This document shows, in pieces, positions 40,756 to 61,499 of a stretch of DNA of 64,000 nucleotides (positions are counted from its first letter, which is position 1; every line of letters begins with the position of its first letter). Below the pieces are notes generated by a model. The model was given only the letters and a program-made list of their open reading frames with translations. It did not search any database and was not told the DNA's origin. The DNA is from Octopus vulgaris (taxonomy: Eukaryota), in contig OX597821.1 in assembly GCA_951406725.2 (NCBI GenBank), forward strand, positions 26,474,001 to 26,538,000, read 5' to 3'. The translations under genes were made by a program, and so were the position numbers.

Positions 40756-41555
40756 TCGAAGGGCTTCTTTCAGTTTCTCTCTACCAAATCCACTCACAAG
40801 GCTTTGGTCTGCCCGAGGCTATAGTAGAAGACACTTGACCAGGGTGCCACACAGTAGGACTGAACCCGGAACCATGTGGTTGGCAAATAACCACACAGCC
40901 ACTCCTGAGGATATTTTTATCCAATACATTAAGTACGATAGACCCCGGCTTCTTCAGCTATGGTATGCTTCATGCGGATGGTACTCTTTGGTATTTTCTC
41001 TACACGATATTTCACGATATACATGCAAAAATAAAATTCAGGACAAATCCTGCTGGAAATGAATTAACATTTCACCTTGTTTCCGAAAAAATAAATATTA
41101 GATTCATACAAAAAAAAAAAAAGGAAGGAGCCAATTTCGATGCTTTCCAGTGCTTCCCATTCGCCAAAATATGCGATCTTCTACTTTGGATATAAAACAT
41201 TAATATAATATTTCAATTGTGTATTTAGGCGGTTGTTCTGATCTGACATTGTAATGTACGTGAAGGTGCTCTGTAGGTACTGCTTCTGTTGGCATTTAAT
41301 TAAAAGAAGAAGTTTCTATTTGTTTAAGTCAACATTTTATTTTTTGCTCCTATGTAATAAGAAATGTATTTTGCATTCTTATTACGATGATATAACCATA
41401 ATGAGGAAAGTCAAATGTTCTCTTACTGACGCTTAATTTTATGATTTGTCTCTGATTGTTTAGAAATTAATAAAAGCATAAATTTTATGGTTGTTTAAAA
41501 TGGTTCGTATTAATAGTTCCTGTTTTCTTTTTTTTTTTTTCATGTCTGGTTATAG

Positions 41556-41752
41556 AACAACACCAGTTGATAGAAATAAGAAACGTGAAGTTTGTGGTTT
41601 TTCAAAATGTCGAGTTACCTTCATACAAAAGAGGATTCGCAAATTTCGTATGAGACGATTCCTGAAAGATTGCGTAAGAGAGCTGAAAAATATCCAGACA
41701 GAGTAACAATTGTTTGCTATGATGCAGAATTCAAAAGGCACCAAATAACCAT
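41556..41752 (+). CDS. Shared (constant) first coding exon of an ANL-superfamily acyl-CoA synthetase-like (ACSF2-like) gene; coding part 41607-41752
   Basis: Poly-T tract and AG acceptor end at 41555. ATG at 41607 in an AAAATG context reads MSSYLHTKEDSQISYETIPERLRKRAEKYPDRVTIVCYDAEFKRHQIT plus AT, then the consensus donor GTAAGT at 41753. This resembles the SY..TI...L...A..YPDR...T N-terminus of ACSF2-like enzymes. AT|G joins in frame to every downstream cassette. Not in the ORF track. Confidence 0.9.
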
Positions 41753-41834
41753 GTAAGTATATGCAAAAGTGAATGAAATATTTGAACCCAAAATACGAAG
41801 TCTGATTAGTAAGTATACAAATTGTTGCCATAGT

Positions 41835-42300
41835 AATAAAGGTAAAGCATGCAGAGTGAAGCCGCTTGGCAAAAATTGACCTTGAACTCTGCTGTGCATA
41901 AGCACTAAGTTTTAACGTTTTAGTTCACCTCCGCTGTTTTCAGCAGTGCTTGGTAGGAAGGTGTGTAGCGTGTGATAGCCGCATTGATCATGACAGAGAA
42001 AGCCGTTATGGCGATACCTGCTCAGAGATCTACACAAAGTTGCAAAAAGTGTATGGAGATGGGTGTATGTGCCGCACATGAGTGTACAGGTGTTCCAGAC
42101 GTTTCCAAGATGGCCAAAAAAATGTCAATATTGATGAACGTTCTGGGAGACCAGCAGAACTGCGAAAAATATCGCAAATGTACGTGAAGCTCTGAAGGGA
42201 AATGGTCGAATCACCATCCGTGAGTTATCGGAGGATAGTGCACATGCACAGCAAAGTTCTGTGCCAAGTAACTTTACTCTGCGTTCTTCAGCTTCGTTTC
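41835..42300 (+). mobile_element. Internally deleted mariner element in the intron after the shared exon
   Basis: Inverted ends (~41838-41915 versus ~42237-42300). Transposase N-terminal remnants (VYG..CM.RT.VY.C..RF..G...I.DERSGRP). Confidence 0.75.
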
Positions 42301-43026
42301 TATGGCAAGACTTGATACTTATTGATCAGGCAACGCATGACAGAGCAGGTGACGTGCGACGTTCATTGTACTTGTGTTTGTATGCCAATATATTTTCTTT
42401 TGTGTAGAAGCATAAACATTCATACACGAGTGACGTATTTTCCTCTTAAATGTTTGGCGTACTTAACTTATGGTCTATCAGAAACGGAAATCGATATACA
42501 TTGTTTACACAGGAGGCTTACTAGTAGAGTATTTGAAGAATCGGAAACAATGCCTCGTGGTATTTGTTGCTACTTTCTATTTCTGCATTTAAATCGGATT
42601 GAGTTGATTGTCATCCTTCCAAGATTAATAAAAAGCTTCAGTCCCTGGCGGTAGATTTGTAGAACTGGGAAAATGTTGGCTCACATATCTTGCAGGATTT
42701 GTTCTGTAAATATATTTTTGCGTTCCGATTTTGTATGTCGAAACACTCTACTTGGCCGTAGATTTAATCCTCCAAATGGTATCACCATCTGGCGTCTTAG
42801 ATGTCTGTATCAGAGTCCGTTCTTGTGCATACATTGGGTCAGACTCCAGATTGAGGATATCTACATCAATTTCTGGTTAGTTTTCCTTGCTAGTTCAGTC
42901 AATTATCAACAAAATTCTCTGAGTCCTCTCAAGGAAATGCAGAAATATTAAATATATATAATCTACTATATTATGAAACTATGGATTTAGGAGCATATAT
43001 ATTAAATATGTCACTTTACTTTACAG

Positions 43027-44503
43027 GAAAGAGATGTACGATGGAGCTGTGAAGTTCGCAAAGGCTTTGATGAAACTAGGCATTAAAAAAAGAGACAAGA
43101 TTGCATTGTGTGTTCCTAACTGTGTAGAATGGATGAGCTACGATATTGGAATCATGATGACGGGAGCATATTCTATGAGATTAATGTTTGGATTAGCAGA
43201 TATGAAATCTATTATAAAAGGATGTAGTGCTGTTGTATTTGGATCCAAATCTATTTGGGACAATTTCTTATCCATTGCACAAATAAGCGATAATGGAAAA
43301 GTATCTTGCGAAGCGTGTCTAGATTTGAGGTTTGCCATTGATGTGTCCAATACACACAGACCAGCCAATGCTTTATCTGCTGCTAAATTGATGGCAGAAA
43401 TAAGTGACGATGACGAGGTTGAGTTTCCTTACATTGACCCGGAAGATATTGCATCCATCAATCAGACTTCAGGAAGCACTGGTGTGCCCAAAGGTATCTG
43501 TCACAGCCATTTTGAATGCTTAAACTTACCTGATTCAGATTTTAATGAGAGTTTCCGTTTTATCACATTTAGCGGTCGGCCAATGGGATATATTGGAGGA
43601 TATCCTTTGACTGCGGTAACTAGAGGAACATTGCATGTTAGTGGAGACGTAGAAATGTTGAATGATCCGAAGAACCTCGATTTTGTTATAAAGATATGGC
43701 AGAGTGAAGAATGTAACATGGTTGGTGTTGCACCACAAGATGTGAAGCGACTTAGCGACCGCGATTTCAGTGTCCCTATGTTAATGTCAAGTGGAGACAT
43801 GGTTACCCGGGATACAATAGAAAATGCTTTGAAGCTTACAGGTTATTTCATAGTTGTTTATGGAAGTACTGAATCTTTCACGGTATCGTACAAAGTTTAT
43901 ACTCCAGAAAACATTTCAGAACATCAACAAGGATTGCTCGGGCGACCAGTTGCAGGAACAGAAATCAAAATTGTTGACGAGGAGAAGAGGGTTGTAGATA
44001 TTGGAAAGACAGGCTATTTGTATTTTCGAAGTAAATGGATAGCAAAAACACATCTGGACGGCACCTCATGTTTAGAAAATGGTTGGTATCCAACATCAGA
44101 TGTTTGTTACTTAACTGAAGATGGTGACCTCATAATGGTTGGAAGAAGCACTGATTTTATTAAGAAGTGTACTGTAAAATTATCTATTAAACTTATTGAA
44201 GATTACATCGGACGTCATCCGAGTGTAGATGCTGTGGTTGTTGTACCAATCCCTGACCAGGCGGTTGGAGAACGTGTATGTGCGTGCGTTACCCTTCGGC
44301 CAAATCACGAGTTCAATGAAGAAGAATTGAAAAAGTTTTGTACGGAAACAATGCCGCATCCAGATGACTTTGATTGTGTATCGATGCACCCTGATTATAT
44401 TTTATATTTTCCTTCATTTCCATTTTTGCCCAGTGGCAAGTTTGACAGAAAGACTATAGCAAGTTTGGCCCTTAAGAAAATAAAAAAATGTAGTAATAAG
44501 TAA
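43027..44503 (+). CDS. Terminal exon cassette 1, AMP-binding enzyme (540 aa when spliced to the shared exon)
   Basis: Acceptor ttactttacAG|GAAAGAGATG. Open frame with P-loop QTSGSTGVPKG, YGSTE, GWYPTSD, GRxxDxIK and SGKFDRK. AATAAA at 44578-44583. Confidence 0.92.
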
Positions 44504-45058
44504 AAATTACCAAGATTAACAAACGTGTGTTTTAGATTTCCATGTTTAACATGTTAACGTGCTAAGGTTTCCTTCTAAATAAAAGCGACATGCTTCGTTA
44601 AATATATACATTTATATGTGTATGCTTACATACATATATACATTCATACATACATAGATATATATATACACACACACACATACATACATACATACATTCA
44701 TACATACATACATACATACATACATACACATATATATATATATATATATATGAATATAGGCCCGTAATGTCAAAGACTTATCCAATCTTTCCGTTCATTA
44801 AACTAATACACCTGTTCGTTGTACCGTCACCTGTCGTTGTCTTTTGTTTTTTGTACATTTGAACTATGTATTACATACTTTCACCTGCTTATCACAGTTT
44901 GATCCTACCTGACTGAACTTCCACCACTTATGGGCCGTCATCTCTCTCTTACCTTTTCCTCGAACCTTAGGTATCTATCCTCATCCACCTAACCATCAAC
45001 CCAAATGGATTACCATTGGGAGTTTCTACATTTTCCAACTCTACCACCATGGATCTTA

Positions 45059-45742
45059 GGTGTGTAACGTGTGATATTCGCATTGACCATGTCGGATGAA
45101 GCTGTTATGGCGAAACCCGCTCAAGATCTACAAAATTTGCAAAAGGTATATGGAGAGGGGTGTATGTGCCGCACACGAGTGTACAAGTGTTCCAGACGTT
45201 TCCAATATGGCCGAAAAAATGTCGATATTGATGAACGTTCTGGGAGACCAGCAGAACTGAGAAAAATATCGCAAATGTGCGTGAAGCTTTGAGGGAAAAT
45301 CATCGAATCACCATCCATGAGTTATGGGGCGCTGTGTAGATTAGTTACGGTTCAGTTTAGTCCGTTATCACCGACGATTTGGGTATGATACGCGTATCTC
45401 CCAAGATTGTGCGAAAACTGTTTTCAGCAGACCAAAAAGACACTCGGGTTTCAGTTGAATAAGATCTCTTTGACTGTGTCGAGAACGATGAAAACTTTTT
45501 TGAAAACTTTGCGTAGGCCTTTGAGCAGGTCTCACCAAGCTTTTGGCAAAACTTGATGCAGATTCTCTGCTCAACTTTCTCTATCATGGTCAGAGCGACG
45601 ATCACACACTACACACTTTCCTTCCAGGAACTGTTGTAAACAGGAACTAAGCTAGTATGTTAAAACTTAGTGCACATGCGCAGCAGAGTTCAAGGTCATT
45701 CTGTGCTAAGTAGCTTTACTCTGCGTTCTTCAGCTTCGTTAC
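45059..45742. mobile_element. Rearranged mariner relic between cassettes 1 and 2
   Basis: 45059-45325 parallels 41960-42230; 45500-45742 is an inverted 5' end encoding MIEKVEQRICIKFCQKLG. Confidence 0.8.
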
Positions 45743-46459
45743 TATAGCAAGACTTGATACTTATTGATCAGGCAACGCATGACAGAGCAGGTGACGTGCA
45801 ACGTTCATTGTACCTGTGTTTGTATGCCAATATATTTTCTTGTGTGTAGAAGCATAAACATTCATACTCGAGTCACGCTCATCTTAAATGTTTGGCGTAC
45901 TTATGGTCTATTAGAAATGGAAATCGATGTACATTGTTTATAAAGGAGGCTTACTGGTAGAGAAGTTGAAGCATCGGAAACAATGCCTCGTGGTATTTGC
46001 TGCTACTTTCTGTTTCTGAATTTAAATCGGATTGAGATGATTGTCATCCTTCCAAGATTAGTAAAAAGTTTCAGTCCCTCGTGGTAGATTTGTAGAACTG
46101 GGAAAATGTTGGCTCACATATCTTACAGGATTTGTTCTGTAAATATGTTTTTGCGTTCCGATTTTGTATCTCGAAACACTCTACTTGGCCGTAGATTTAA
46201 TCCTCCAAATGGTATCACTATCTGGCATCTTAGATGTCTGTAGCAGAGTCCGTTATTGTTCATACATTGAGGCAGACTCCAGATTGAGGATATCTACACC
46301 AATTTCTGGGCAGTCTTGCTTGCTAGATCAGTCAATTATCAACAAAATTCTCTGAGTCCTCTCAAGGAAATGCAAAAATGTTAAATATATATAATCTACT
46401 ATATTATGAAACTATGGATTTAGGAGCATATATGTTAAATATGTCACTTTACTTTACAG

Positions 46460-47918
46460 GAAAGAGATGTACGATGGAGCTGTGAAGTTCGCAAAGGCTT
46501 TGATGAAACTAGGCATCGAAAAAGGAGACAAGATTGCATTTTGTGTTCCTAACTGTGTGGAATGGATGAGCTACGATATTGGAATCATGATGACGGGAGC
46601 ATATTCTATAAGATTAATGTTTGGATTAGCAGATATGAAATCTATTATAAAAGGATGCAGTGCTGTTGTATTTGGATCCAAATCTATTTGGGACAGTTTT
46701 TTATCCATTGCACAAATAAAGGAAAATGGAAAAGTATTTTGCGAAGCGTGTCCAGATTTGAAGTTTGCCATTGATGTGTCCAATACACACAGACCAGCCA
46801 ATGCTTTATCTGCTGCTAAATTGATGGCAGAAATAAGTGACGATGACGAAGTTGAGTTTCCTTACATTGACCCAGAAGATATCGCATCCATTAATCAGAC
46901 TTCAGGAAGCACTGGTGTGCCCAAAAGTATCTGTCACAGCCATTTTGAATGCTTAAACTTACCTGATTCAGATTTTAATGAGAGTTCTCGTCTTATCAGG
47001 TTTAGTGGTCGGCCTATGGGATATATTGTAGGATATCCTTTGAATGTGGTAACCAGAGGATCATTGCATGTCAGTGGAGACGTAGAAATGTTGAATGATC
47101 CGAAGAACCTCGATTTTGTTATAAAGATATGGCAGAGTGAAGAATGTAACATGGTTAATGTTGCACCACAAGATGTGAAGCGACTTAGCGACCGCGATTT
47201 CCGTGTCAATATGATAACGTCAGGTGGAGACATGATTACCCGAGAAACAATAGAACATGCCTTGAAGGTTGCAGATTCCTTCTGTGTTGGTTATGGAAGT
47301 ACTGAATCTATTTTGGTATCTTCCAAAGTGTTTACTCTAGAAAACATTTCAGAACATCAACAAGGAATGCTCGGGCGACCAATTGCAGGAACGGAAATCA
47401 AAATTGTTGACGAGGAGAAGAGGGTCGTGGATATTGGAAAGACAGGCTATTTGTATTTTCGAAGTAAACATATAGCAAAAACATATCTGGATGGTACTTC
47501 GTGTTTAGAAAATGGTTGGTATCCAACATTAGATATTTGTTATTTAACTGAAGATGGTGATCTCATAATGGTTGGAAGAAGCACAGATCTTATTAAGAAG
47601 TGTACAGTAAAGCTATCTATTAAACTTATTGAAGATTACATCGGACGTCATCCGAGTGTAGATGCTGTGGTTGTTGTACCAATCCCTGACCAGGCAGTTG
47701 GAGAGCGTGTATGCGCGTGCGTTACCGTTCGGCCAAATCACGAGTTCAATGAAGAAGAATTGAAAAAGTTTTGTACGGAAACAATGCCGAATCCAGATAA
47801 CTTTGATTGTGTATCGATGCACCCTGATTATATTTTATATTTTCCTTCATTTCCACTTTTGGCCAGTGGCAAGTTTGACAGAAAGACTATAAAATGTTTG
47901 GCCCTTAAGAAGATATAA
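46460..47918 (+). CDS. Terminal exon cassette 2, AMP-binding enzyme (534 aa spliced)
   Basis: Same acceptor and phase; intact ORF with TSGSTGVPKS, YGSTE and SGKFDRK; AATAAA at 48014-48019. Confidence 0.88.
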
Positions 47919-48767
47919 AAAATATAGTAATAAGTAAATATAAATTACCAAGATTAACAGACGTGTTTTAGTTTTCCATGTTTAACATGTTAACGTGCTA
48001 AGGTTTCCTTCTAAATAAAGGCGACATGCATCGTTAAATATATACATTTATATGTGTGTCTGCTTAAATACATATATACATTCATACATACATAGATATA
48101 TACACACATACATACATACATACATAGATACATACGTATATATATATATGAATATAGGCCCGTAATATCAAAGACTTATCCAATCTTTCCGTGCATTAAA
48201 CTAATACACCTGTTCGTTGTTCCGTCACCTGTCTTTGTCTTTTGTTTTTTGTAAGTTTGAACTATGTATTACTTACTGTCACGGAAACAAAGCCACGTGG
48301 TATTTGTTGCTACTTTCTGTTTCTGAATTCAAATTCGATTGAGTTGATTATCATCCTTCCAAGATTAGTAAAAAGTTTCAGTCCCTGGTGGTAGATTTGT
48401 AGAACTGGGAAAATGTTGGCTCACATATCTTGCAGGATTTGTTTCTGTAAATATATTTTTGCGTTCCGATTTTGTATCGCGAAACACTCTACTTGGCCGT
48501 AGATTTAATCCTGAAACAGGTATCACCATCTGGCATCTTAGGTGTCTGTAGCAGAGTCCGCTCTTGTGCATACATTGGGTCAGTCTCCGGATTGAGGATA
48601 TCTACATCAATTTCTGGGCAGTTTTGCTTGCTAGATCAGTCAATTATCAACAAAATGCTCTGAGTCCTCTCAAGGAAATGCAGAAATATTAAGTATATAT
48701 AATCTGCTATATTATGCAACTATGTACTTAGGAGCATATATGTTAAATATACTACTTTTCTTTACAG

Positions 48768-50238
48768 GAAAGAGATCTACGATGGAGCTGTGAAGTTCGC
48801 AAAGGCTTTGATGAAACTAGGCATTGAAAAAGGAGACAAGATTGCATTTTGTGTTCCTAACTGTGTAGAATGGATGAGTTACGATATTGGAATCATGATG
48901 ACTGGAGCATATTCTATAAGATTAATGTTTGGATTAGCAGATATGAAATCTATTACAAAAGGATGTAGTGCTGTTGTATTCGGATCCAAATCTATTTGGG
49001 ACAGTTTCTTATCCATTGCACAAATAAAAGAAAATGGAAAAGTATCTTGCGAAGCGTGTCCAGATTTGAAGTTTGCCATTGATGTGTCCAATACACACAG
49101 ACCAGCCAATGCTTTATCTGCTGCTAAATTGATGGCAGAAATAAGTGACGATGACGAGGTTGAGTTTCCTTACATTGACCCAGAAGATATTGCATCCATT
49201 AATCAGACTTCAGGAAGCACTGGTGTGCCCAAAGGTATCTGTCACAGCCATTTTGAATATGTAAACTTACCTGATTCAGATTTTATTGAGAGTTCTCGTC
49301 TTATCATGTTTAGTGGTCGGCCAATGGGATACATTGGAGGATATCCTTTGAATGTGGTAACCAGAGGATCATTGCATGTTAGTGGAGACGTAGAAATGTT
49401 GAATGATCCGAAGAACCTCGATTTTGTTATAAAGATATGGCAGAGTGAAGAATGTAACATGGTTGGTGTTGCACCACAAGATGTGAAGCGACTTAGCGAC
49501 CGCGATTTCCGTGTCAATATGATAATGTCAGGTGGAGACATGATTACCCGAGAAACAATAGAACATGCCTTGAAGGTTGCAGATTCCTTCTTAGTTGGCT
49601 ATGGAAGTACTGAATCTATTTTCGTATCTTACAAAGTGTTTACTCTAGAAAACATTTCAGAACATCGACAAGGAATGCTCGGGCGACCACCTGCAGGAAC
49701 AGAAATCAAAATTGTTGACGAGGAGAAGAGAGTTGTGGATACTGGAAAGACAGGCTATTTGTATTTTCGAAGCAAATATATAGCAAAAACATATCTGGAT
49801 GGTACTTCATGTTTAGAAAATGGTTGGTATCCAACATCAGATATTTGTTACTTAACTGAAGATGGTGATCTCATAATGGTTGGAAGAAGCACAGATCTTA
49901 TTAAGAAGTGTACAGTAAAGCTATCTATTAAACTTATTGAAGATTACATCGGACGTCATCCGAGTGTAGATGCTGTGGTTGTTGTACCAATCCCTGACCA
50001 GGCCGTTGGAGAACGTGTATGCGCGTGCGTTACCCTTCTGCCAAATCACGAGTTCAAAGAAGAAGAATTGAAAAAGTTTTGCACGGAAACAATGCCGGAT
50101 CCAGATAACTTTGATTGTGTTTCGATGCACCCTGATTCTATTTTATATTTTCCTTCATTTCCACTTTTGGCCAGTGGCAAGTTTGACAGAAAGACTATAG
50201 CAAGTTTGGCCCTTAAGAAAATAAAAAACATGTTGTAA
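48768..50238 (+). CDS. Terminal exon cassette 3, AMP-binding enzyme (538 aa spliced)
   Basis: Acceptor tttctttacAG|GAAAGAGATC, so the internal ATG of the other copies is ATC here. Intact ORF; AATAAA at 50519-50524. Confidence 0.88.
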
Positions 50239-50298
50239 TAATTAAATTAATTTACCAAGATTAACAAACGTGTGTTATAGTTTTCCATGTTTAACATG

Positions 50299-50488
50299 GC
50301 ACAAATAAACGATAATGGAAAAGTATGTTGCGAAGCGTGTCCTGATTTGAAGTTTGCCATTGATATGTCCAATACACACAGACCAGCTAATGCTTTATCT
50401 GCTGCTAAATTGATGGCAGAAATATGTGACGATGATGCAGTTGAGTTTCCTAACATTGACCCAGAAGATATTGCATCCATCAATCAGA
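50299..50488 (+). pseudogene. ~190 bp internal fragment of the enzyme exon inserted in the 3' UTR of cassette 3
   Basis: Translates AQINDNGKVCCEACPDLKFAID...IDPEDIASINQ and interrupts the UTR motif TTTAACATG-TTAACGTGCT that is continuous in copies 1, 2, 5 and 6. Confidence 0.9.
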
Positions 50489-50665
50489 AGATGTTAAATG
50501 TGCTACGCTTTCCTTCTGAATAAAGGCGACATGCTTCGTTAAATATAGATTTATATGTGTGTATGCTTACATACATATATACATTCATACATACATAGAT
50601 ATATACACACACATATTTACATATACACATACATACATACATACACACATACATACCTAGATACA

Positions 50666-50701
<36 letters not shown>

Positions 50702-51329
50702 TATATAAATATGAATATAGGCCCGTAATATCAAAGACTTATCCAATCTTTCCGTGCATTAAACTAATACACCTGTTTGTTGTTCCGTCATCTGTCTTTG
50801 TCTTTTGTTTTCTGTACGTTTGAACTATGTATTACTTACTGTCACGGAAACAATGCCACGTGGTATTTGTTGCTACTTTCTGTTTCTGAATTCAAATCCG
50901 ATTGAGTTGATTATCATCCTTCCAAGATTAGTAAAAAGTTTCAGTCCCTGGCGGTAGATTTGTAGAACTGGGAAAATGTTGGCTCACATATCTTACAGGA
51001 TTTGTTCTGTAAATATATTTTTGCGTTCCGATTTTGTATCTCGAAATACTCTACTTAGCCGTAGATTTAATCCTGAAACAGGTGTCACCATCAGGCATCT
51101 TAGATGTATGTAGCAGAGTCCGCTCTTGTGCATACATTGGGTCAGTCTCCGGATTGAGTATATCTACATCAATTTCTGGTTAGTTTTGCTTGGTAGATCA
51201 GTCAATTATCAACAAAATTCTCTGAGTCCTCTCAAGGAAATGCAAAAATGTTAAATATATATAATCTACTATATTACGAATCTATGAATTTAGGAGCATA
51301 TATGTTAAATATGCTGCTTTTCTTTACAG

Positions 51330-52797
51330 GAAAGAGATGTGCGATGGAGCTGTGAAGTTCGCAAAGGCTTTGATGAAACTAGGCATTGAAAAAGGAGACA
51401 AGATTGCATTTTGTGTTCCTAACTGTGTAGAATGGATGAGCTACGATATTGGAATCATGATGACTGGAGCATATTCTATGAGATTAATGTTTGGATTAGC
51501 AGATATGAAATCTATTATAAAAGGATGTAGTGCTGTTGTATTTGGATCCAAATCTATTTGGGACAGTTTCTTATCCATTGCACAAATAAGCGATAATGGA
51601 AAAGTATCTTGCGTAGAGTGTCCAGATTTGAAGTTTGCCATTGATGTGTCCAATACACACAGACCAGCCAATGCTTTATCTGCTGCTAAATTGATGGCAG
51701 AAATAAGTGACGATGACGAGGTTGAGTTTCCTTACATTGACCCAGAAGATATTGCAACAATTATGCAGACTTCAGGAAGCACTGGTGTGCCCAAAGGTAT
51801 CTGTCACAGCCATTTTAATTACTTAAACTTTGCTGCTTCAGATTTTAATGAAAGTTATCAGTTTACCATATTTAGTGGTCGGCCAATGGGATATATTGGA
51901 GGATATCCTTCGACTGTGCTAACCAGAGGATCATTGCATATCACTGGAGATGTAGAAATGTTGAATGATCCGAAGAACCTCGATTTTGTTATAAAGATAT
52001 GGCAGAGTGAAGAATGTAACATGGTTGGAGTTGCACCCCAAGATGTAAAGCGACTTAGCGACCGCGATTTCCGTCTCAATATGCTAATGTCAGGTGGAGA
52101 CATGATTACCCGAGATATAATAGAAAATGCTTTGAAGGTTGCAGATTCATTCTTTGTTGGTTATGGAAGTACTGAATCTATTTTTGTATCTTACAAAATG
52201 TTTACTCCAGAAAACATTTCAGAACATCAACAAGGAATGATCGGGCGACCAGTTGGAGGAACAGAAATCAAAATTGTTGACGAGGAGAAGAGAGTTGTGG
52301 ATATTGGAAAGACAGGCTATTTGTATTTTCGAAGCAAATATATAGCAAAAACATATCTGGATGGCACTTCATGTTTAGAAAATGGTTGGTATCCAACATC
52401 AGATATTTGTTACTTAACTGAAGATGGTGATCTCATAATGGTTGGAAGAAGCACAGATTTTATTAAGAAGTGTACAGTAAAGCTATCTATTAAACTTATT
52501 GAAGATTACATCGGACGTCATCCGAGTGTAGATGCTGTGGTTGTTGTACCAATCCCTGACCAGGCAGTTGGAGAACGTGTATGCGCGTGCGTTACCCTTC
52601 TGCCAAATCACGAGTTCAATGAAGAAGAATTGAAAAAGTTTTGTACGGAAACAATGCCGGATCCAGATAACTTTGATTGTGTTTCGATGCACCCTGATTA
52701 TATTTTATATTTTCCTTCATTTCCACTTTTGGCCAGTGGCAAGTTTGACAGAAAGACTATAGCAAGTTTGGCCCTTAAGAAAATAAAAAACATGTAG
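51330..52797 (+). CDS. Terminal exon cassette 4, AMP-binding enzyme (537 aa spliced)
   Basis: Same acceptor and phase; intact ORF; AATAAA at 53082-53087. Confidence 0.88.
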
Positions 52798-52860
52798 TAA
52801 TAATTAAATTAATTTACCAAGATTAACAAACGTGTGTTATAGTTTTCCATGTTTAACATG

Positions 52861-53052
52861 GCACAAATAAACGATAATGGAAAAGTATGTTGCGAAGCGT
52901 GTCCTGATTTGAAGTTTGCCATTGATGTGTCCAATACACACACAGACCAGCTAATGCTTTATCTGCTGCTAAATTGATGGCAGAAATAAGTGACGATGAC
53001 GCAGTTGAGTTTCCTAACATTGACCCAGAAAATATTGCATCCATCAATCAGA
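52861..53052 (+). pseudogene. Same exon fragment in the 3' UTR of cassette 4 (2-nt CA insertion)
   Basis: Same junctions as 50299-50488. Confidence 0.9.
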
Positions 53053-53260
53053 AGATGTTAACGTGCTACGCTTTCCTTCTGAATAAAGGTGACATGCTTC
53101 GTTAAATATAGGTTTATATGTGTGTATGCTTACATACATATATACATTCATACATACATAGATATATACACATACATATACACATACATACATACATACA
53201 TACATACATACATACCTAGATACTCACATACATACCTAGGTACATACATACATACATACA

Positions 53261-53296
<36 letters not shown>

Positions 53297-53921
53297 TATA
53301 TATGAATATAGGCCCGTAATGTCAAAGACTTATCCAATCTTTCCGTTCATTAAACTAATACACCTGTTCGTTGTACCGTCACCTGTCTTTGTCTTTTGTT
53401 TTTTGTAAGTTTGAACTATGTATTACTTACTGTCACGGAAGCAATGTCTCGTGGTATTTGTTGCTACTTTCTGTTTCTGAATTCAAATCCGATTGAGTTG
53501 ATTATTATCCTTCCAAGATTAGTAAAAAGTTTCAGTCCCTGGTGGTAGGTTTGTAGAACTGGGAAAATGTTGGCTCACATATCTTGCAGGATTTCTTCTG
53601 TAAATATATTTTTGCGTTCTTATTTTGTATCTCGAAACACTCTACTTGACCGTAGATTTAATCCTGAAACAGGTATCACCATCTGGCATCTTAGATGTCT
53701 GTAGCAGAGTCCGCTCTTGTGCATACATTGGGGCAGACTCCAGATTGAGGATATCTACATCAATTTCTGGTTAGTTTTGCTTGCTAGATCAGTCAATTAT
53801 CAACAAAAATGCTCTGAGTCCTCTCAAGGAAATGCAGAAATATTAAGTATATACAATATACTATATTATGAAACTATGTACTTAGGAGCATATATGTTAA
53901 ATATACTACTTTTCTTTACAG

Positions 53922-55388
53922 GAAAGAGATGTACGATGGAGCTGCGAAGTTCGCAAAGTCTTTGATGAAATTAGGCATTGAAAAAGGAGACAAGATTGCA
54001 TTTTGTGTTCCTAACTGTGTAGAATGGATGAGCTACGATATTGGAATCATGATGACGGGAGCATATTCTATAAGATTAATGTTTGGATTAGCAGATATGA
54101 AATCTATTATAAAAGGATGCAGTGCTGTTGTATTTGGTTCCAAATCTATTTGGGACAGTTTCTTATCCATTGCACAAATAAGCGATAATGGAAAAGTATC
54201 TTGCAAAGCGTGTCCAGATTTGAAGTTTGCCATTGATATGTCCAATACACACAGACCAGCCAATGCTTTATCTGCTGCTAAATTGATGGCAGAAATAAGT
54301 GACGATGACGAGGTTGAGTTTCCTTACATTGACCCAGAAGATATTGTAGCAATCAATCAGACTTCAGGAAGCACTGGTGTGCCCAAAGGTATCTGTCACA
54401 GCCATTTTGAATGCTTAATCTCACATGATTCAGATTTTAATGAGAGTTCTCGTCTTATCATGTTTAGTGGTCGGCCAATGGGATATATTGGAGGATATCT
54501 CCTGAATGTGGTAACTAGAGGATCATTGCATGTCAGCGAGACGTAGAAATGTTGAATGATCCGAAAAACTTCGATTTTGTTATAAAGATATGGCAGAGTG
54601 AAGAATGTAACATGGTTGGTGTTGCACCACAAGATGTGAAGCGACTTAGCGACCGCGATTTCCGTGTCCCTACGTTATTGTCAAGTGGAGACATGATTAC
54701 ACGGGATACAATAGAAAATGCTTTGAAGGTTGCAGATTCATTCTTAGTTGTTTATGGAAGTACTGAATCTTTCACGGTATCGTACAAAGTTTTTACTCTA
54801 GAAAACATTTCAGAACATCAACAAGGAATGCTCGGGCGACCAGTTGCAGGAACGGAAATCAAAATTGTTGACGAGGAGAAGAGGGTTGTGGATATTGGAA
54901 AGACAGGCTATTTGTATTTTCGAAGTAAGCATATAGTAAAAACACATCTGGATGGTACTTCGTGTTTAGAAAATGGTTGGTATCCAACATCAGATGTTTG
55001 TTACTTAACTGAAGATGGTGATCTCATAATGGTTGGAAGAAGCACTGATTTTATTAAGAAGTGTACAGTAAAATTATCTATTAAACTTATTGAAGATTAC
55101 ATCGGACGTCATCCGAGTGTAGATGCTGTGGTTGTTGTACCAATCCCTGACCAGGCAGTTGGAGAACGTGTATGCGCCTGCGTTACCCTTCGGCCAGATC
55201 ACGAATTCAATGAAGTAGAATTGAAAAAGTTTTGTACGGAAACAATGCCGCATCCAGATGTCTTTGATTGTGTATCGATGCACCCTGATTATATTTTATA
55301 TTTTCCTTCATTTCCACTTTTGGCTAGTGGCAAGTTTGACAAAAAGACTATAGCAAGTTTGGCCCTTAAGAAAATATCAAAAATGTAG
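53922..55388 (+). pseudogene. Terminal exon cassette 5, frameshifted (pseudo-exon or sequencing error)
   Basis: Acceptor intact. A 1-nt deletion near 54537 (AGCGAGAC versus AGTGGAGAC in paralogs) splits it into ORFs 53929-54546 and 54549-55388. The conserved AATAAA is AATATA (55473-55478). Confidence 0.8.
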
Positions 55389-55556
55389 TAATAAGTAAAA
55401 ATTACCAAGATTAACAAACGTGTATTATAGTTTTCCATGTTTAACATGTTGACGTGCTAAGGTTTCCTTCTGAATATAGGTGACATGCTTCGTTAAATAT
55501 ATACATTTATATGTGTGTATGCTTACTTACATATATACATTCATACATAGATATAT

Positions 55557-55597
<41 letters not shown>

Positions 55598-55869
55598 CAT
55601 ATATACATAGATACATACATTTATTCTTACATACATATATAGACACATACATATATACACTCATACATACATACATACATACATACATACATACATACAT
55701 ACATACATACATACATACATACATACATACATACACTCACACACACACATATATTTCATTCGATTAAGACTATAATCTCGAAGGTGATGCCCCTTGAAAC
55801 AAATAAACGATACAAAATACCACACAGATATGTAAGTATTTGTGTGTGTGTCTGTGTGTGTTTATTCAT

Positions 55870-56725
55870 CAAGAATAGTAGCTGTTAGATCATGTGAACT
55901 CAATAAAGCCATCCATACAGTTCACAATGGAAGAGGAAAAAGACCATCAGCTAGCATTCCTGGCCTTATTAATAACACGCACCAAGTATGGATTCAGGAC
56001 ATCCGTATACCGCAAGCCGACTTTCACTGGACGATACCTCAACTTCAAATCCCACCATCCATATAGTGTAAAGAAAGGGATTGCTCAGTGCCTAAAACAT
56101 CGAACAAAGAATATAAGTAGCGATCATGATACACACCACTAAGAAATGATCAAGCTCAACAACAATCTTTTAAGCAACAACAATCCCAAAAGCATACTCT
56201 CCACTCCAATTATGAAGAAAAGAGAAGATGAAACGAATAAGCTGTCCACAGTCTCTCTGTCCTATGTGAAAGACCTCTCCGAAAAGATACAAAAGATATG
56301 CGGCCCATATGACATCAGGAAAGTATTCAAGAGTAATACAACACTTCGCAAATATCTCCTTCGAGTAAAACCACCAATAGAAGAGAATATGACTAAGAAC
56401 TGCGCGTACTCCATCCCATGCAGTTGTGGTAGGTTATACAAAGGCGAAACATGCCGCCCCCTCAAAATAAGTGTAGAGGAACATCACAAAGCTGTGGCAC
56501 GTGGAGATATTGATAAATCGGGTATAGCTGATCATGTATGGAAAAATGGAGACCACTTCTTCCTGTGGGATGAAGTTAAAATAATAGACAGTGAACACCA
56601 CTGGAAAATACGAAAACTAAAAGAAGCAGCAAATATACTAGGAAACAACAAGCTCCTAAACAGACCGAGTGCAGATATGAACAGCATATGGGAACCGGTA
56701 TTAAGGAAGGATAATAGAATATTAG

Positions 56726-56768
<43 letters not shown>

Positions 56769-56945
56769 TCGAAAAATACCTTAGGAATGAGAACCCAGGT
56801 TCGAAATTTCCACAAGACACCCGATGAAGGCTGGAGGGTATATCAGCCGAAACGGTGTGTTAACAACAAACAAGATGAGGACAAATATCCGTCAGTTGTA
56901 AATAACGTAAATAATGTACATAATTCATCATCTCTTATATATAGA
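55870..56945 (+). mobile_element. Penelope-like element 3' part (RT C-terminus and GIY-YIG endonuclease) with terminal repeat remnant
   Basis: VYRKPTFTGRYLNFKSHHP..VKKG, AYSIPCSCGRLYKGET.R.L....EEH and KS.IADH. Confidence 0.88.
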
Positions 56946-57339
56946 ACTGAAGAATAGGATTCACAGTGACTACGAAGTTTCGGCTAGCTAAGCCATCATT
57001 GGGTAGTCCAACTCTTCGAAGTCACTATTTTTGTTAAAAAATAACATATTTACACTTTTCAGAATTATGGAGTAACCTTTCAGATTAATGTAAAAATGTT
57101 TTCATTACACTTAAATATTAAAATATACATTTACCTATACTTCACCTACACTTTTGAACCATCATGTCATCTGATGTGGCTATTTAAACCGGACAATGTT
57201 TTGAAAAGACACCTACATAGATTGTATATCCAATTTGGGCCACCAAGAGCTGTAGTTAAGTTCTGATGTTTTTAGATCTTAAAATGTCGTTTGAGGCCTC
57301 CGTTAGATTTGTAGACCTTCTGGAATAACATATAGGCAC

Positions 57340-58200
57340 TATAGGTGGTGGAAATACTTCTACGAATTCAAAGTGCAGCACAAGCATTTGCTGGTTTGGC
57401 GTCACGCTTTTGGCGCCAACGACATGTAAATAACAATACAAAATTGGCTCTTTACAAATCATTTGTCTTACCATCCCTGGTGTATTCTTTTGAAACGTGG
57501 ACTTGTTATGAAAGACATTTCATACTGTTAGAACAATTCCACCAAAAATGCCTTCATCGCATTTTAAACATTAAATAGAGTTCTTTTACTCCAAAACAGA
57601 TGTCCTTGCGTCAGCTGGCATCACCTCAATTAAAGCGATGATTCGGAAAACCCAAATGAGATGGAGTGGCCATATTGTTCGAATGGCGCAAGAACGCACA
57701 CACACACATACATACATATATGCATACATACATACACAACACCCCGTGGACTAATTTTTAAAGGTCTGTCAGGAATTCAGCCTATCAGTCTGAAGAAGAC
57801 CAAAGTGCTGGGCCAAGGTGCTAAGCACCTTTCTCCACCATCAATATCACCATCACCATCAACAACTACAAGCTGGAAGTAGTCCATGAATTCACCTACC
57901 ATCACTGATGACCTCTCCATGGACCCTGAGATCAAAGGGAGAATTGAACGAGCGTCCTCCATATTTGCCGGGCTCACAAAGAGAGACTAGAAAAATAGAA
58001 AACTAGCTGCAAACACTAAGATTGCTGTCTATACGGCGTGCGTCCTTAGCACGCTACTTTACGGCAGTGAGACATAGAGCTTCTACTCCAGATAGGAGCG
58101 GCGTCTTAACGTCTTCCACCTTCGTAATTTGAGACGCATCTCGGATAACAAGTGGACCGACCACATCATCAACATCGAAGTCCTCAGCTGCACCAGGATA
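57340..58200 (+). mobile_element. Two RTE LINE 3' fragments
   Basis: TKLALYKSFVLPSLVYSFETWT...LEQFHQKCLHRILNI and the TKIAVYTACVLSTLLYGSET-like segment at ~58015-58075. Confidence 0.8.
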
Positions 58201-58450
58201 CCCAGACTGTGTATAAAATTTCAAGAAAATCGGTTGAAAACTTTAAAAGTTATGGCAGAAAATAACATTTATACGAGAATTTGCATTGAAATGTCCTATC
58301 GATTTTATTCTCAGATTTACACACTTTTTGCAGCTACCTTCAGTTTTTTTAAGCCTTGTAACTGAACACGGGAGGCTGGGCCTCCAGTGTTGCCTCTCCC
58401 GATGCATTTAAAGCCATGAAATTTTTAGGCTGGCTCGGGTAAAATAACAC

Positions 58451-58493
<43 letters not shown>

Positions 58494-59262
58494 CACATAT
58501 ATATATATATAAAGTTAATCCAAACAAGAAAGCACAAAAAAAGCACAAAAAAACACAACAACGCGAGGACGTGGAACAAATATAGTATTATTGGACGCTC
58601 AGGAAAGAAGGAGGGTTTAACGTTTCGAGCGGAGCTCTTCGTCGGAAACATAGGAGAAGGAAAGATCCAGAGAAGGGAAGACAGAGGAAAAAAAATCGTC
58701 AACGGTACACACGAGGTCACATTATATATATATATGTGAATATATATGTGTGTGTGTGTGTGTTTGTATCTGTGTATTTTCATTTGTGTTTGTTTCTTCC
58801 ACTGCTTGACAACTGGTGTTGAATTATTTACGTCCTCGTGACCTAGCGGATCAGCAAAGAGACGGATTGAATAAAAACAGTACTGTTGCTGATTTTATCG
58901 ACTTCAAGCTAATGTCTCAGTATGGTTGCTTTCAAATGACTGAAAAAACTAAAAGATAAAAGCTATAGACATACATACATACATACATACAAACAAACAC
59001 ATGTGTGTATGTTCAGTTGGTTAGAGGGCGTGGGGTGAGGGTGGAGTCGAAGAGTACGGTGGGGGGAGTTTACTGTGGTGTTAGTGAATTCAGAATTTAC
59101 TATCTTGACCATTGATATCGCTGAGATTTCTGTTGGTAGATTAAACTATTATCATCTAAGATATCTGCACTTTCATAATATAATATAGAAATGTAAATAA
59201 CTTATATCATGAAACTACTTGTTTAGCAACATACATGTTAAATATGTCACTTTTCTTTGCAG

Positions 59263-60727
59263 GAAAGAGATGTGCGATGGAGCTGTGAAATTCGCAAAGG
59301 CTCTGATGAAACTAGGCATTGAAAAAGGAGACAAGATTGCATTTTGTGTTCCTAACTGTGTGGAATGGATGAGCTACGATATAGGCATCATGATGACGGG
59401 AGCATATTCTATGAGACTGATATTTGGATTAGCAGATATGAAATCTATTATAAAAGGATGCAGTGCTGTTGTATTTGGTTCCAAATCTATCTGGGACAAT
59501 TTTTTATCCATTGCACAAATAAGCGATAATGGAAAAGTATCTTGCGAAGCGTGTCCTGATTTGAGGTTTGCCATTGATGTGTCTAATACACACAGACCAG
59601 CCAATGCTTTATCTGCTGCTACATTGATGGCAAAAGTAAGCGACGATGTCGCAGTTGAGTTTCCTTACATTGACCCAGAAGATATTGCATCCATCAGTCA
59701 GACTTCCGGAAGCACTGGTGTGCCCAAAGGTATTTGTCACAGCCATTTTGAATACTTAAACAACAAGGATTTAGATTTTAAAGACACTTCTCTTGTCATA
59801 TTTAGCAGTCGGCCAATGGGATATGGTGGAGGATATCCTTTGTCTGTGCTAACCAGAGGATCATTGCATGTCACTGGAGATGTAGAAATGTTGAATGATC
59901 CGAAGAACCTCGATTTTGTTATAAAGATATGGCAGAGTGAAGAATGTAACATTGTTGGTGTTGCACCACAAAATGTGAAGCGACTTAGCGACCGCGATTT
60001 CCGTGTCAATATGATAATGTCAGGTGGAGACATCATTACCCGGGATACAATAGAAAATGCTTTGAAGGTTGCAGATTCATTCATAGTTGTTTATGGAAGT
60101 ATTGAATCTTTCTACATAACTAATAGAATTTTTACACTAGAAAACATTTCGGAACATCAACAAGGAATTTTGGGTCGACCACTTGAAGGAACGGAAATCA
60201 AAATTGTTGACGAGGAGAAGAGAGTTGTGGATATTGGAAAGACAGGCTATTTGTATTTTCGAAGTAAATGGATAGCAAAAACATATCTGGATGGCACCTC
60301 ATGCTTAGAAAATGGTTGGTATCCAACATCAGATATTTGTTACTTAACTGAAGATGGTGATCTCATAATGGTTGGAAGAAGCACAGATTTTATTAAGAAG
60401 TGTACAGTAAAATTATCTATTAAACTTATTGAAGATTACATTGGACGTCATCCGAGTGTAGATGCTGTGGTTGTTGTACCAATCCCTGACCAGGCAGTTG
60501 GAGAACGTGTATGCGCGTGCGTTACCGTTCGGCCAAATCACGAGTTCAATGAAGAGGAATTGAAAAAGTTTTGTACGGAAACAATGCCGAATCCAGATAA
60601 CTTTGATTGTGTATCGATGCACCCTGATTATATTTTATATTTTCCTTCATTTCCACTTTTGGCCAGTGGCAAGTTTAACAAAAAGATTATAAAATGCTTG
60701 GCCTATCAGAAAATTAAAGAAATGTAG
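59263..60727 (+). CDS. Terminal exon cassette 6, AMP-binding enzyme (536 aa spliced); most divergent copy
   Basis: Acceptor ttttctttgcAG|GAAAGAGATG. Intact ORF, one codon shorter in the first variable block, with YGSIE; AATAAA at 60811-60816. Confidence 0.88.
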
Positions 60728-61499
60728 TAATAAATTAAATTACCAAGATTAACAAACGTGTATTTTAGTTTTCCATGTTTAACATGTTAACGTGCTAAGG
60801 TTTCCTTCTAAATAAAGGCGACATGCTTCGTTAAATATATTTATATGTGTGTATGCTTACATACATACATACATACATACGTATATGCATATATTCATAC
60901 ATACATACATACATACATACATACATACATACATACATACATACATACATACATACATACATTCACTCTTATTATCTCCCCTTCACTCAACCTCTTTCTT
61001 CGGGTCATTTCATCATGTTGAACAATTAATCTCAACAAACAATTTTTGCTGTTTCCGTTTTTTAGCTGTCTTTCCATTTCTCCCCCTTATCCCTTTCTGC
61101 CAAAGACTTCTCCATTGTTCTGGGGCTACTTGTTGTTCTCTCACCTGTCATTGACTTTAGTTTTCTGTACATTTGAACAATATATATATATATATATGTG
61201 TGTGCGTGTGTGTGTGTGTGTGTGTGAATCTCTGTGCGCATGTGTGTGTGTGTGATCATTACAACATTCAACTCAATGGTATTTGGTTTTAATTATCGTA
61301 TAATTTAATTAATAATGTGATTTAATTTACTTACGTAAAACGATTTGTGTATGTACATGTGTGTTTATACTCATTAATATTTTTAAAATTGACAGTGAGG
61401 TTACAATTAAAAGTATCCGGTTACTTATTAATCTATTTATGAAATTAAATTATGACTAGTATTAATATAATCTATATCTAATTAATATAAACTATAATC

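Follow-up and report, generated by a model that had tools for sequence, protein, structure and literature searches.

One front exon and a tandem series of catalytic bodies

A 64,000-nucleotide (nt) stretch of the Octopus vulgaris genome (OX597821.1, positions 26,474,001 to 26,538,000 of the forward strand; the window, numbered here from its first letter) contains a gene of the adenylate-forming ANL superfamily whose single front coding exon, E1, is followed by a tandem array of paralogous bodies, or cassettes. E1 lies on the forward strand at 41556-41752 and consists of 51 nt of 5' untranslated region (UTR), an ATG at 41607 and 48 codons plus AT (a coding part of 146 nt, 41607-41752), followed by the donor GTAAGT at 41753. 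The six acceptors, CAG|GAAAGAGAT, lie at 43027, 46460, 48768, 51330, 53922 and 59263 in one common phase, and joining E1 to the cassettes behind them (C1 to C6) gives frames of 540, 534, 538, 537, 256 and 536 amino acids. The coordinates of the front exon, its donor and the shared phase of the six blocks are those of the original prediction, which had been made from the DNA letters.

All of the cassettes in the window are on the forward strand. Five of the six intact ones lie there: C1 (43027-44503, 491 amino acids), C2 (46460-47918, 485), C3 (48768-50238, 489), C4 (51330-52797, 488) and C6 (59263-60727, 487). The sixth, C7 (488 amino acids), was found by genome search 11 kilobases (kb) past the window end, at C8:26549004-26550471 (L004:1004-2471; C8 here names a genomic sequence), and has no front exon of its own; the predicted count of six is thus right for the window but one intact body short for the array. 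C5 (53922-55388) is broken: 1 nt is missing near 54537, and a premature stop follows at 54546; the contig comparison has no indel row at this deletion, which is either a true break or an assembly error. The 3' end signals of C1 (44578-44860, forward strand) are AATAAA at 44578 and ATTAAA at 44797, then a GU/U-rich stretch, and a loose end of 25 A in transcript run X13 falls at 44829, 27 nt past the ATTAAA. The corresponding pairs are at 48014 and 48195 in C2, 50519 and 50758 in C3, and 53082 and 53349 in C4, and C6 has AATAAA at 60811. The claim that each cassette has its own stop and poly(A) signal therefore stands for C1-C4 and C6 but not for the frameshifted C5, which has AATATA where the others have the proximal AATAAA and has lost the distal ATTAAA site. 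The shortest stop-to-acceptor spacer measures 850 nt (47918 to 48768), as had been estimated. With terminal paralogs that follow a common 5' exon and bring separate acceptors, all in one phase, and separate 3' ends, the locus has the make-up of a tandem 3' variable region.

E1 had been taken for the first exon of the gene, and this part of the prediction does not hold. The transcript evidence comes from four of 24 listed runs (X1, X3, X5 and X13), all of them contigs presumed to derive from RNA although none of the 24 is recorded as such, and covers the 32 matching pieces listed (beside 1971 others) and 24 of 90 loose ends. There are contigs that begin at 41555 and continue through E1 into a body. 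E1 is an internal exon with an acceptor at 41555/41556 behind a pyrimidine tract and AG, because the contig match begins at 41555 after the AG and two contigs extend further upstream, those of runs X1 and X3 holding 13 and 196 extra letters, respectively, that are absent from the stretch compared. Comparison of the regions 5' of the cassette gene and of its nearest paralog did not locate the upstream non-coding exon. It probably lies in window positions 1-41500, which hold mainly simple repeats and transposon fragments and no other clear protein-coding gene in the list of open reading frames, or still further upstream.

As predicted, the spacers contain no second copy of E1, either by blastn and tblastn or by protein and DNA profile hidden Markov models with filters off. 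The genome search gave 17 matches, 14 of them bodies and three partial pieces. Profile searches of the window and 36 loci of 10 kb each found eight front exons, one for the cassette gene and seven for the other bodies (three on genomic sequence C8, four on genomic sequence C5). The ratio of front exons to bodies is therefore 1:7 in the cassette gene, in contrast to 1:1 in all seven other paralogs found.

The encoded proteins are recognizable ANL enzymes. All four cassettes scanned (C1, C2, C4 and C6) match the Pfam families AMP-binding (PF00501; 125-151 bits) and AMP-binding_C (PF13193; 35-37 bits) above the curated cut-offs, and the P-loop, YGxTE motif, catalytic Asp, hinge GR and C-terminal Lys are conserved in 6/6 intact cassettes, with YGSIE in C6. 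A structure model of E1+C1 (database protein P0059; mean predicted local distance difference test score, pLDDT, of 86.8) matches luciferases, 4-coumarate:CoA ligases and aryl-adenylating enzymes, with a template modelling score of up to 0.81 to firefly luciferases. These structural matches confirm the ANL fold. The name 'ACSF2-like' is an automatic RefSeq label. In line with the original prediction, which held that ANL enzymes need this N-terminal segment, E1 supplies positions 1-24 of the AMP-binding profile and the bodies match it from position 25 onward. The junction lies inside what we take to be motif A1, the first half of which is encoded by E1. E1 residues 1-50 are modelled with block mean pLDDT values of 81-94 as a confident helix and two strands.

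Transcripts, related species and selection

A GT..AG joint from 41752 is present in all four transcript runs. In run X5 (record 25), the joint reaches diagnostic bases and identifies the body as C1, with three differences from C1 across a region in which every other cassette has at least 10. Contigs matching C2 or C3 instead, at 17-29 differences from C1, occur in all four runs as well: record 30 of X5 is C2 (24 differences from C1), record 22 of X3 is C3 (27 differences), record 6 of X1 is C2, with C3 one base off (17 differences from C1), and records 13 and 14 of X13 are C2-type with stop and 3' UTR included. In the X13 contigs, position 47293 shows A>G in the Tyr codon of the YGSTE motif, a change found in no paralog that may be an allele, a contig error or RNA editing. 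In run X1, the contig bearing E1 extends without a break and ends at body base 57, the point of divergence between C1 and C2/C7, and two further contigs, one C1-type and one not, begin at body base 28; this is the pattern expected of a fork behind one shared junction, although it is only a hint. A joint from 41752 to 46460 was rejected as proof of E1-C2 splicing, its 57 nt being identical in C1, C2 and C7. Differences from C1 begin at body base 10 in C3, 12 in C4 and C6, 24 in C5 and 58 in C2 and C7. Spacers before the acceptors have low contig cover, and run X1 gives depths of 15.5 for the E1 contig and 8 and 7.5 for the next two, but depth of bodies versus spacers was not used as evidence because contig depth cannot rank parts. 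A search for short database proteins across the junction gave two candidates, neither of them significant.

Gene models of other octopuses join the front exon to several bodies. In the existing O. vulgaris annotation, the downstream bodies appear as separate N-terminally truncated proteins (483, 446, 486, 205, 485 and 486 amino acids), which is the miscall that the original prediction had anticipated. In contrast, RefSeq lists isoforms X1-X6 of O. sinensis under one name, of which X1, X5, X2 and X4 combine an identical N-terminus with the counterparts of C1, C2, C3 and C6 (99.3, 97.3, 96.8 and 96.3% identity, respectively); the grouping is starred in a tree from which isoforms X3 and X6 were left out as chimeras. 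In O. bimaculoides, isoforms X1 and X2 have an identical N-terminus and two bodies that are different as early as the third codon past the junction, and the pocket segment of isoform X1 is of C6 type, one-residue deletion included, although its position in the tree is open. Older O. bimaculoides models place a piece of an intron-1 element, matching 42030-42180/45133-45277, between E1 and the X2 body, and one of them fuses a retroelement piece (85% identical; 55927-56397) to a C6-type body. Since the two species split about 34 million years ago (10.1101/2023.05.16.540928), these models and markers imply that at least three bodies that lack a front exon or share one predate the split. In the gene models of these relatives, the front exon is thus joined to four bodies in O. 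sinensis and to two in O. bimaculoides. Of the junctions in the O. vulgaris contigs, E1-C1 is diagnostic and no distal one is; the models that join E1 to more than one cassette in the two other species are automatic. In Argonauta, four consecutively numbered database models of the clade have three distinct front exons among them. Two neighboring models of Argonauta hians (P0011 and P0070) have identical N-termini and near-identical bodies, and may be whole-gene duplicates or share a front exon.

The intact cassettes are 85-95% identical in protein sequence and have evolved under constraint. Among the five intact bodies other than C1, the ratio of nonsynonymous to synonymous divergence (dN/dS; Nei-Gojobori, with pairs that are not independent) is 0.41 (bootstrap 0.31-0.53), being 0.25 (0.16-0.37) outside and 0.65 (0.45-0.93) inside residues 201-360. 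No region has dN/dS above 1, the maximum being 0.97 at residues 205-250. Identity to the O. bimaculoides counterparts is 90.8% for C7 and 86.4% for C6, in the neighborhood of the 89.5-90.1% of three ordinary paralogs. Bodies without a start of their own are therefore conserved like working genes.

Variation among the six intact cassettes is concentrated, with 70 of the 128 variable columns falling within the 160 residues 201-360. By sequence alignment, residues 245, 326 and 334 correspond to Ser240, Val329 and Val337 of DhbE. Ser240 of DhbE is a pocket residue (PMC10296737), and Val331 and Val339 of EntE, presumably equivalent to Val329 and Val337 of DhbE, form the base of the pocket (PMC11661926). 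From C1 to C7, position 326 is V, G, G, G, V, V and A, and position 334 is T, L, F, F, T, Y and L. This variation in the pocket region makes it likely that the cassette enzymes accept different substrates.

Taken together, the RefSeq isoform models of two species, purifying selection, conservation across species and the cassette-specific contigs argue that one N-terminal exon is spliced to alternative last exons, each a whole catalytic body, and that this is probably a working cassette gene. We put the probability of this reading, which was the core of the original prediction and is the best explanation of the locus, at about 0.8, no distal junction being diagnostic. Several observations weigh against it. 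In the four runs, no contig among those listed joins E1 to a base diagnostic for a cassette other than C1; the joint in X3 spans 41 nt shared by C1, C2 and C7, and that in X13 only 30 nt. The RefSeq models are automatic and contain errors, isoforms X3 and X6 of O. sinensis being chimeras of two cassettes. The RefSeq counterpart of C7 lacks E1 and has other 5' ends in both O. sinensis and O. bimaculoides, and an alternative 5' coding piece of the O. sinensis counterpart matches L003:7745-7858 (C8:26545745), 3.3 kb before C7. A further complete gene of O. bimaculoides (XP_014790470) comes with a second E1 that differs slightly. Finally, the signal of purifying selection could be inflated by gene conversion among the copies.

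Some of these points would fit a locus in which E1 is used with C1 alone. The remaining bodies would then be partial duplicates lacking promoters, transcribed weakly or by read-through, and would still be intact because they are recent and subject to gene conversion. The sole diagnostic junction is E1-C1, C5 is broken, and the flanks upstream of C1-C5 are just 4.5-8.5% apart, so that the units are young or homogenized. We nevertheless regard this as unlikely, because dN/dS is far under 1 in pairs that exclude C1, including C6-C7 with a dS of 0.24, because C6 and C7 are conserved relative to their O. bimaculoides counterparts almost as well as ordinary genes are, and because in each of two species RefSeq models connect E1 with more than one body.

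The C7 models suggest another explanation, namely that the downstream bodies are transcribed separately, each from a first exon of its own that is non-coding or derived from a repeat, and translated from a Met just inside the body into proteins about 50 residues shorter. In O. sinensis, the C7 counterpart is indeed a separate RefSeq gene with several 5' variants, the matching piece is present upstream of C7 in O. vulgaris, and the third codon of most bodies is an in-frame ATG. Such proteins, however, would be without the first 24 profile positions, half of motif A1 and the helix and two strands modelled for E1; the front exon is kept in all seven ordinary paralogs; and the RefSeq models of the C2, C3 and C6 counterparts use E1. 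This explanation is most plausible for C7 and, for the array, slightly less probable than use of C1 alone. The piece at L003:7745-7858 has partial copies at L003:8587 and in L022, which suggests that it is a repeat.

Origin of the array and proposed choice among cassettes

The duplications that produced the cassettes took in the terminal exon but not the 5' exon, because the starts of all units map within intron 1, downstream of the E1 donor: at 41959 for C2, at 42542 for C3-C5 and at about 42950 for C6 and C7, which have only about 77 nt upstream of the acceptor in common with C1, as C6 has with C1-C5 in general. The C1-C4 units each end right after an ATTAAA site with a GU/U-rich stretch downstream, and the C3, C4 and C5 units begin at an identical intron breakpoint (42542-equivalent), immediately behind the preceding poly(A) region. 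Each of the C1-C4 units therefore carries an acceptor, a full body and a 3' end but no start. In the non-coding 485 nt before the acceptor (42542-43026 in C1), C1-C5 differ by 4.5-8.5% with 0-2 indel columns, which is below the synonymous-site difference for most pairs and may reflect gene conversion or constraint. The 3' UTR regions of C3 (50295-50488) and C4 (52857-53052) both hold an internal copy, about 194 nt long, of the coding sequence for residues ~130-195, and C3 and C4 are therefore assigned to one sub-duplication.

These breakpoints also bear on whether assembly dropped or collapsed front exons belonging to the other bodies. The published O. vulgaris assembly derives from ONT R9.4.1 reads and the array is 90-95% identical, conditions under which such an artefact could occur, and the second E1 of XP_014790470 shows that a complete gene of this kind exists in O. 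bimaculoides. On the other hand, the window and the downstream loci L003-L022 contain zero N, the C3-C5 units start at one intron breakpoint directly behind the previous poly(A) region, and models with a shared exon come from the assemblies of two other species as well. An assembly artefact is accordingly the least probable of the explanations considered here, and very unlikely.

Repeats mark the history of the array. Repeat comparison places in intron 1, at 41802-42329, an internally deleted high-copy element with terminal inverted repeats of about 200 nt; the breakpoint of the C2 duplication, at about 41959, lies inside it, 206 nt past the donor. From translated fragments, we take the element to be mariner-like. 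The C2 unit begins with a duplicated copy (45058-45771), whose right arm (45575-45771) is reverse-complementary to 41802-42002. This copy came with the duplication, because its similarity to the intron copy is 89%, compared with no more than 83% to full-length copies elsewhere in the genome (40 of 5507 first-look candidates were scored). Upstream of C6, a retroelement fragment on the forward strand (55927-56730), presumably Penelope-like, serves as a synteny marker.

Ordinary members of the family lie behind the cassette gene and elsewhere. The next paralog with a front exon, at C8:26583984, has its own body, and C8:26583984-26647274 (L007-L013) holds three ordinary paralogs, two on the forward and one on the reverse strand. 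A second cluster on genomic sequence C5 (C5:98810885-98879732, L025-L031) comprises four genes of the family with two coding exons each, their own front exons and the same intron position.

In the reading that we prefer, alternative last exons on one N-terminus, the locus would be a single ANL gene (an ACSF2-like acyl-CoA ligase or squid luciferase-like enzyme) with a 3' variable region, in which the last exon was duplicated in tandem together with its acceptor and poly(A) site, and the front exon remained single. Transcription would start at one upstream promoter, the E1 donor would be joined to one of the near-identical acceptors, and the transcript would be cleaved at the poly(A) site of that cassette. 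The mutually exclusive mRNAs would encode up to six full enzymes (from C1-C4, C6 and probably C7), C5 being a dead cassette. The enzymes would share the N-terminus and the nucleotide-binding motifs and differ mostly in residues ~201-360 lining the acid-binding pocket, and they probably adenylate different small carboxylic acids, most likely en route to CoA thioesters. Since it is the last exon that varies, the choice must fall in RNA processing, and it may be decided by which comes first, cleavage at the poly(A) site of one cassette or splicing of E1 to an acceptor further downstream. We infer that this is the simplest model, given that the acceptors are near-identical and that the poly(A) site observed in use has the weaker variant ATTAAA. 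Trans-splicing is a possible source of the joined mRNAs.

A docking/selector arrangement shared by the cassettes is not apparent. Duplexes between 41753-41960 and the 90 nt before the acceptors were no better than those of shuffled sequences for 7/7 cassettes; with 500 nt, this was so for 6/7, and C6 beat 10/10 shuffles (one of 14 tests). Strong pairing involves repeat-derived arms only, and these lie before C1 and C2 only. The pairing of 41802-42002 with 45575-45771 reaches -236 kcal/mol versus -77 for shuffles and would loop out C1, but strength of this order is expected of any inverted repeat, and it touches C1 and C2 only. A fuller scenario would have one promoter and E1 feed all six intact bodies, the last of them 33 kb away, under tissue- or cell-specific regulation and with differing acid specificity, as a substrate library held for at least 34 million years, with the transposon inverted repeat (41802-42002 with 45575-45771, or locally 42236-42329) acting as an RNA switch between C1 and C2. 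As a whole, this scenario is doubtful.

Comparison with known systems

Within the cephalopods, related proteins are the luciferase-like proteins wsluc1-4 of the firefly squid Watasenia scintillans, ACSF2-like ANL proteins of the same clade, of which wsluc4 is 38% identical to C4. The squid relatives are 24-26% identical to human ACSF2, and O. bimaculoides XP_014790470, a close paralog of the cassette gene, has been placed with the squid proteins (PMC4899746). The crystal proteins of the firefly squid thus have the cassette family as their octopus sister (PMC4899746), a link of sequence from which we infer neither substrates nor light production. The accessible parts of PMC4899746, PMC7708342 (without the word 'exon') and PMC4654499 give nothing on gene structure. 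In the mostly open-access main-text literature searched, we found no description of the octopus locus, or of such an array in cephalopods or the ANL family, although octopus annotations built from Iso-Seq/FLAM-seq data may already include the isoforms. If the cassette reading is correct, the O. vulgaris annotation with its truncated genes would be corrected, the cassettes would offer a ready series for working out which pocket residues go with which substrates in these octopus relatives of the luciferase of the firefly squid, and the Argonauta models would allow whole-gene and last-exon duplication to be compared.

The architecture itself is already known from insects, and the rarity that the original prediction implied is not supported in view of Drosophila pipe (Pip) and PGRP-LC and Anopheles GSTS1. 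Pip, which we take to encode a sulfotransferase, has the same layout as the octopus gene. In Pip, CG42235 and PGRP-LC, a common 5' exon or exons are joined to one of several tandem 3' cassettes, with alternative polyadenylation; Pip has 10 cassettes, and those of Pip and CG42235 consist of 2-8 exons (PMC6191721). The octopus cassette, in contrast, is one exon encoding about 90% of the protein. In addition, docking/selector pairing is described as regulating the Drosophila 3' clusters, whereas none was found for octopus C3-C7. The Anopheles examples have two variants, or four in GSTD1/aggst1-alpha, which reportedly has four 3' exons, and they are insect genes of other enzyme families, whereas the octopus gene has six or seven cassettes and is a mollusc ANL gene. 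In Anopheles gambiae, variants of the enzymes GSTS1 and SOD3 share a 5' exon or N-terminus and differ in their 3' parts (PMC1797171).

The octopus gene is thus probably a further case of a 3' variable region. It also resembles UGT1A and the clustered protocadherins in that many isoforms per locus would come from a tandem array and constant exons. Those loci, however, have variable first exons with their own promoters and constant exons behind them, whereas the octopus gene has one 5' coding exon and multiple last exons, the mirror image that had been predicted. If confirmed, the octopus case, from a mollusc and the ANL family, would stand out among 3' variable regions for its clean design, with one interchangeable exon accounting for about 90% of the enzyme.

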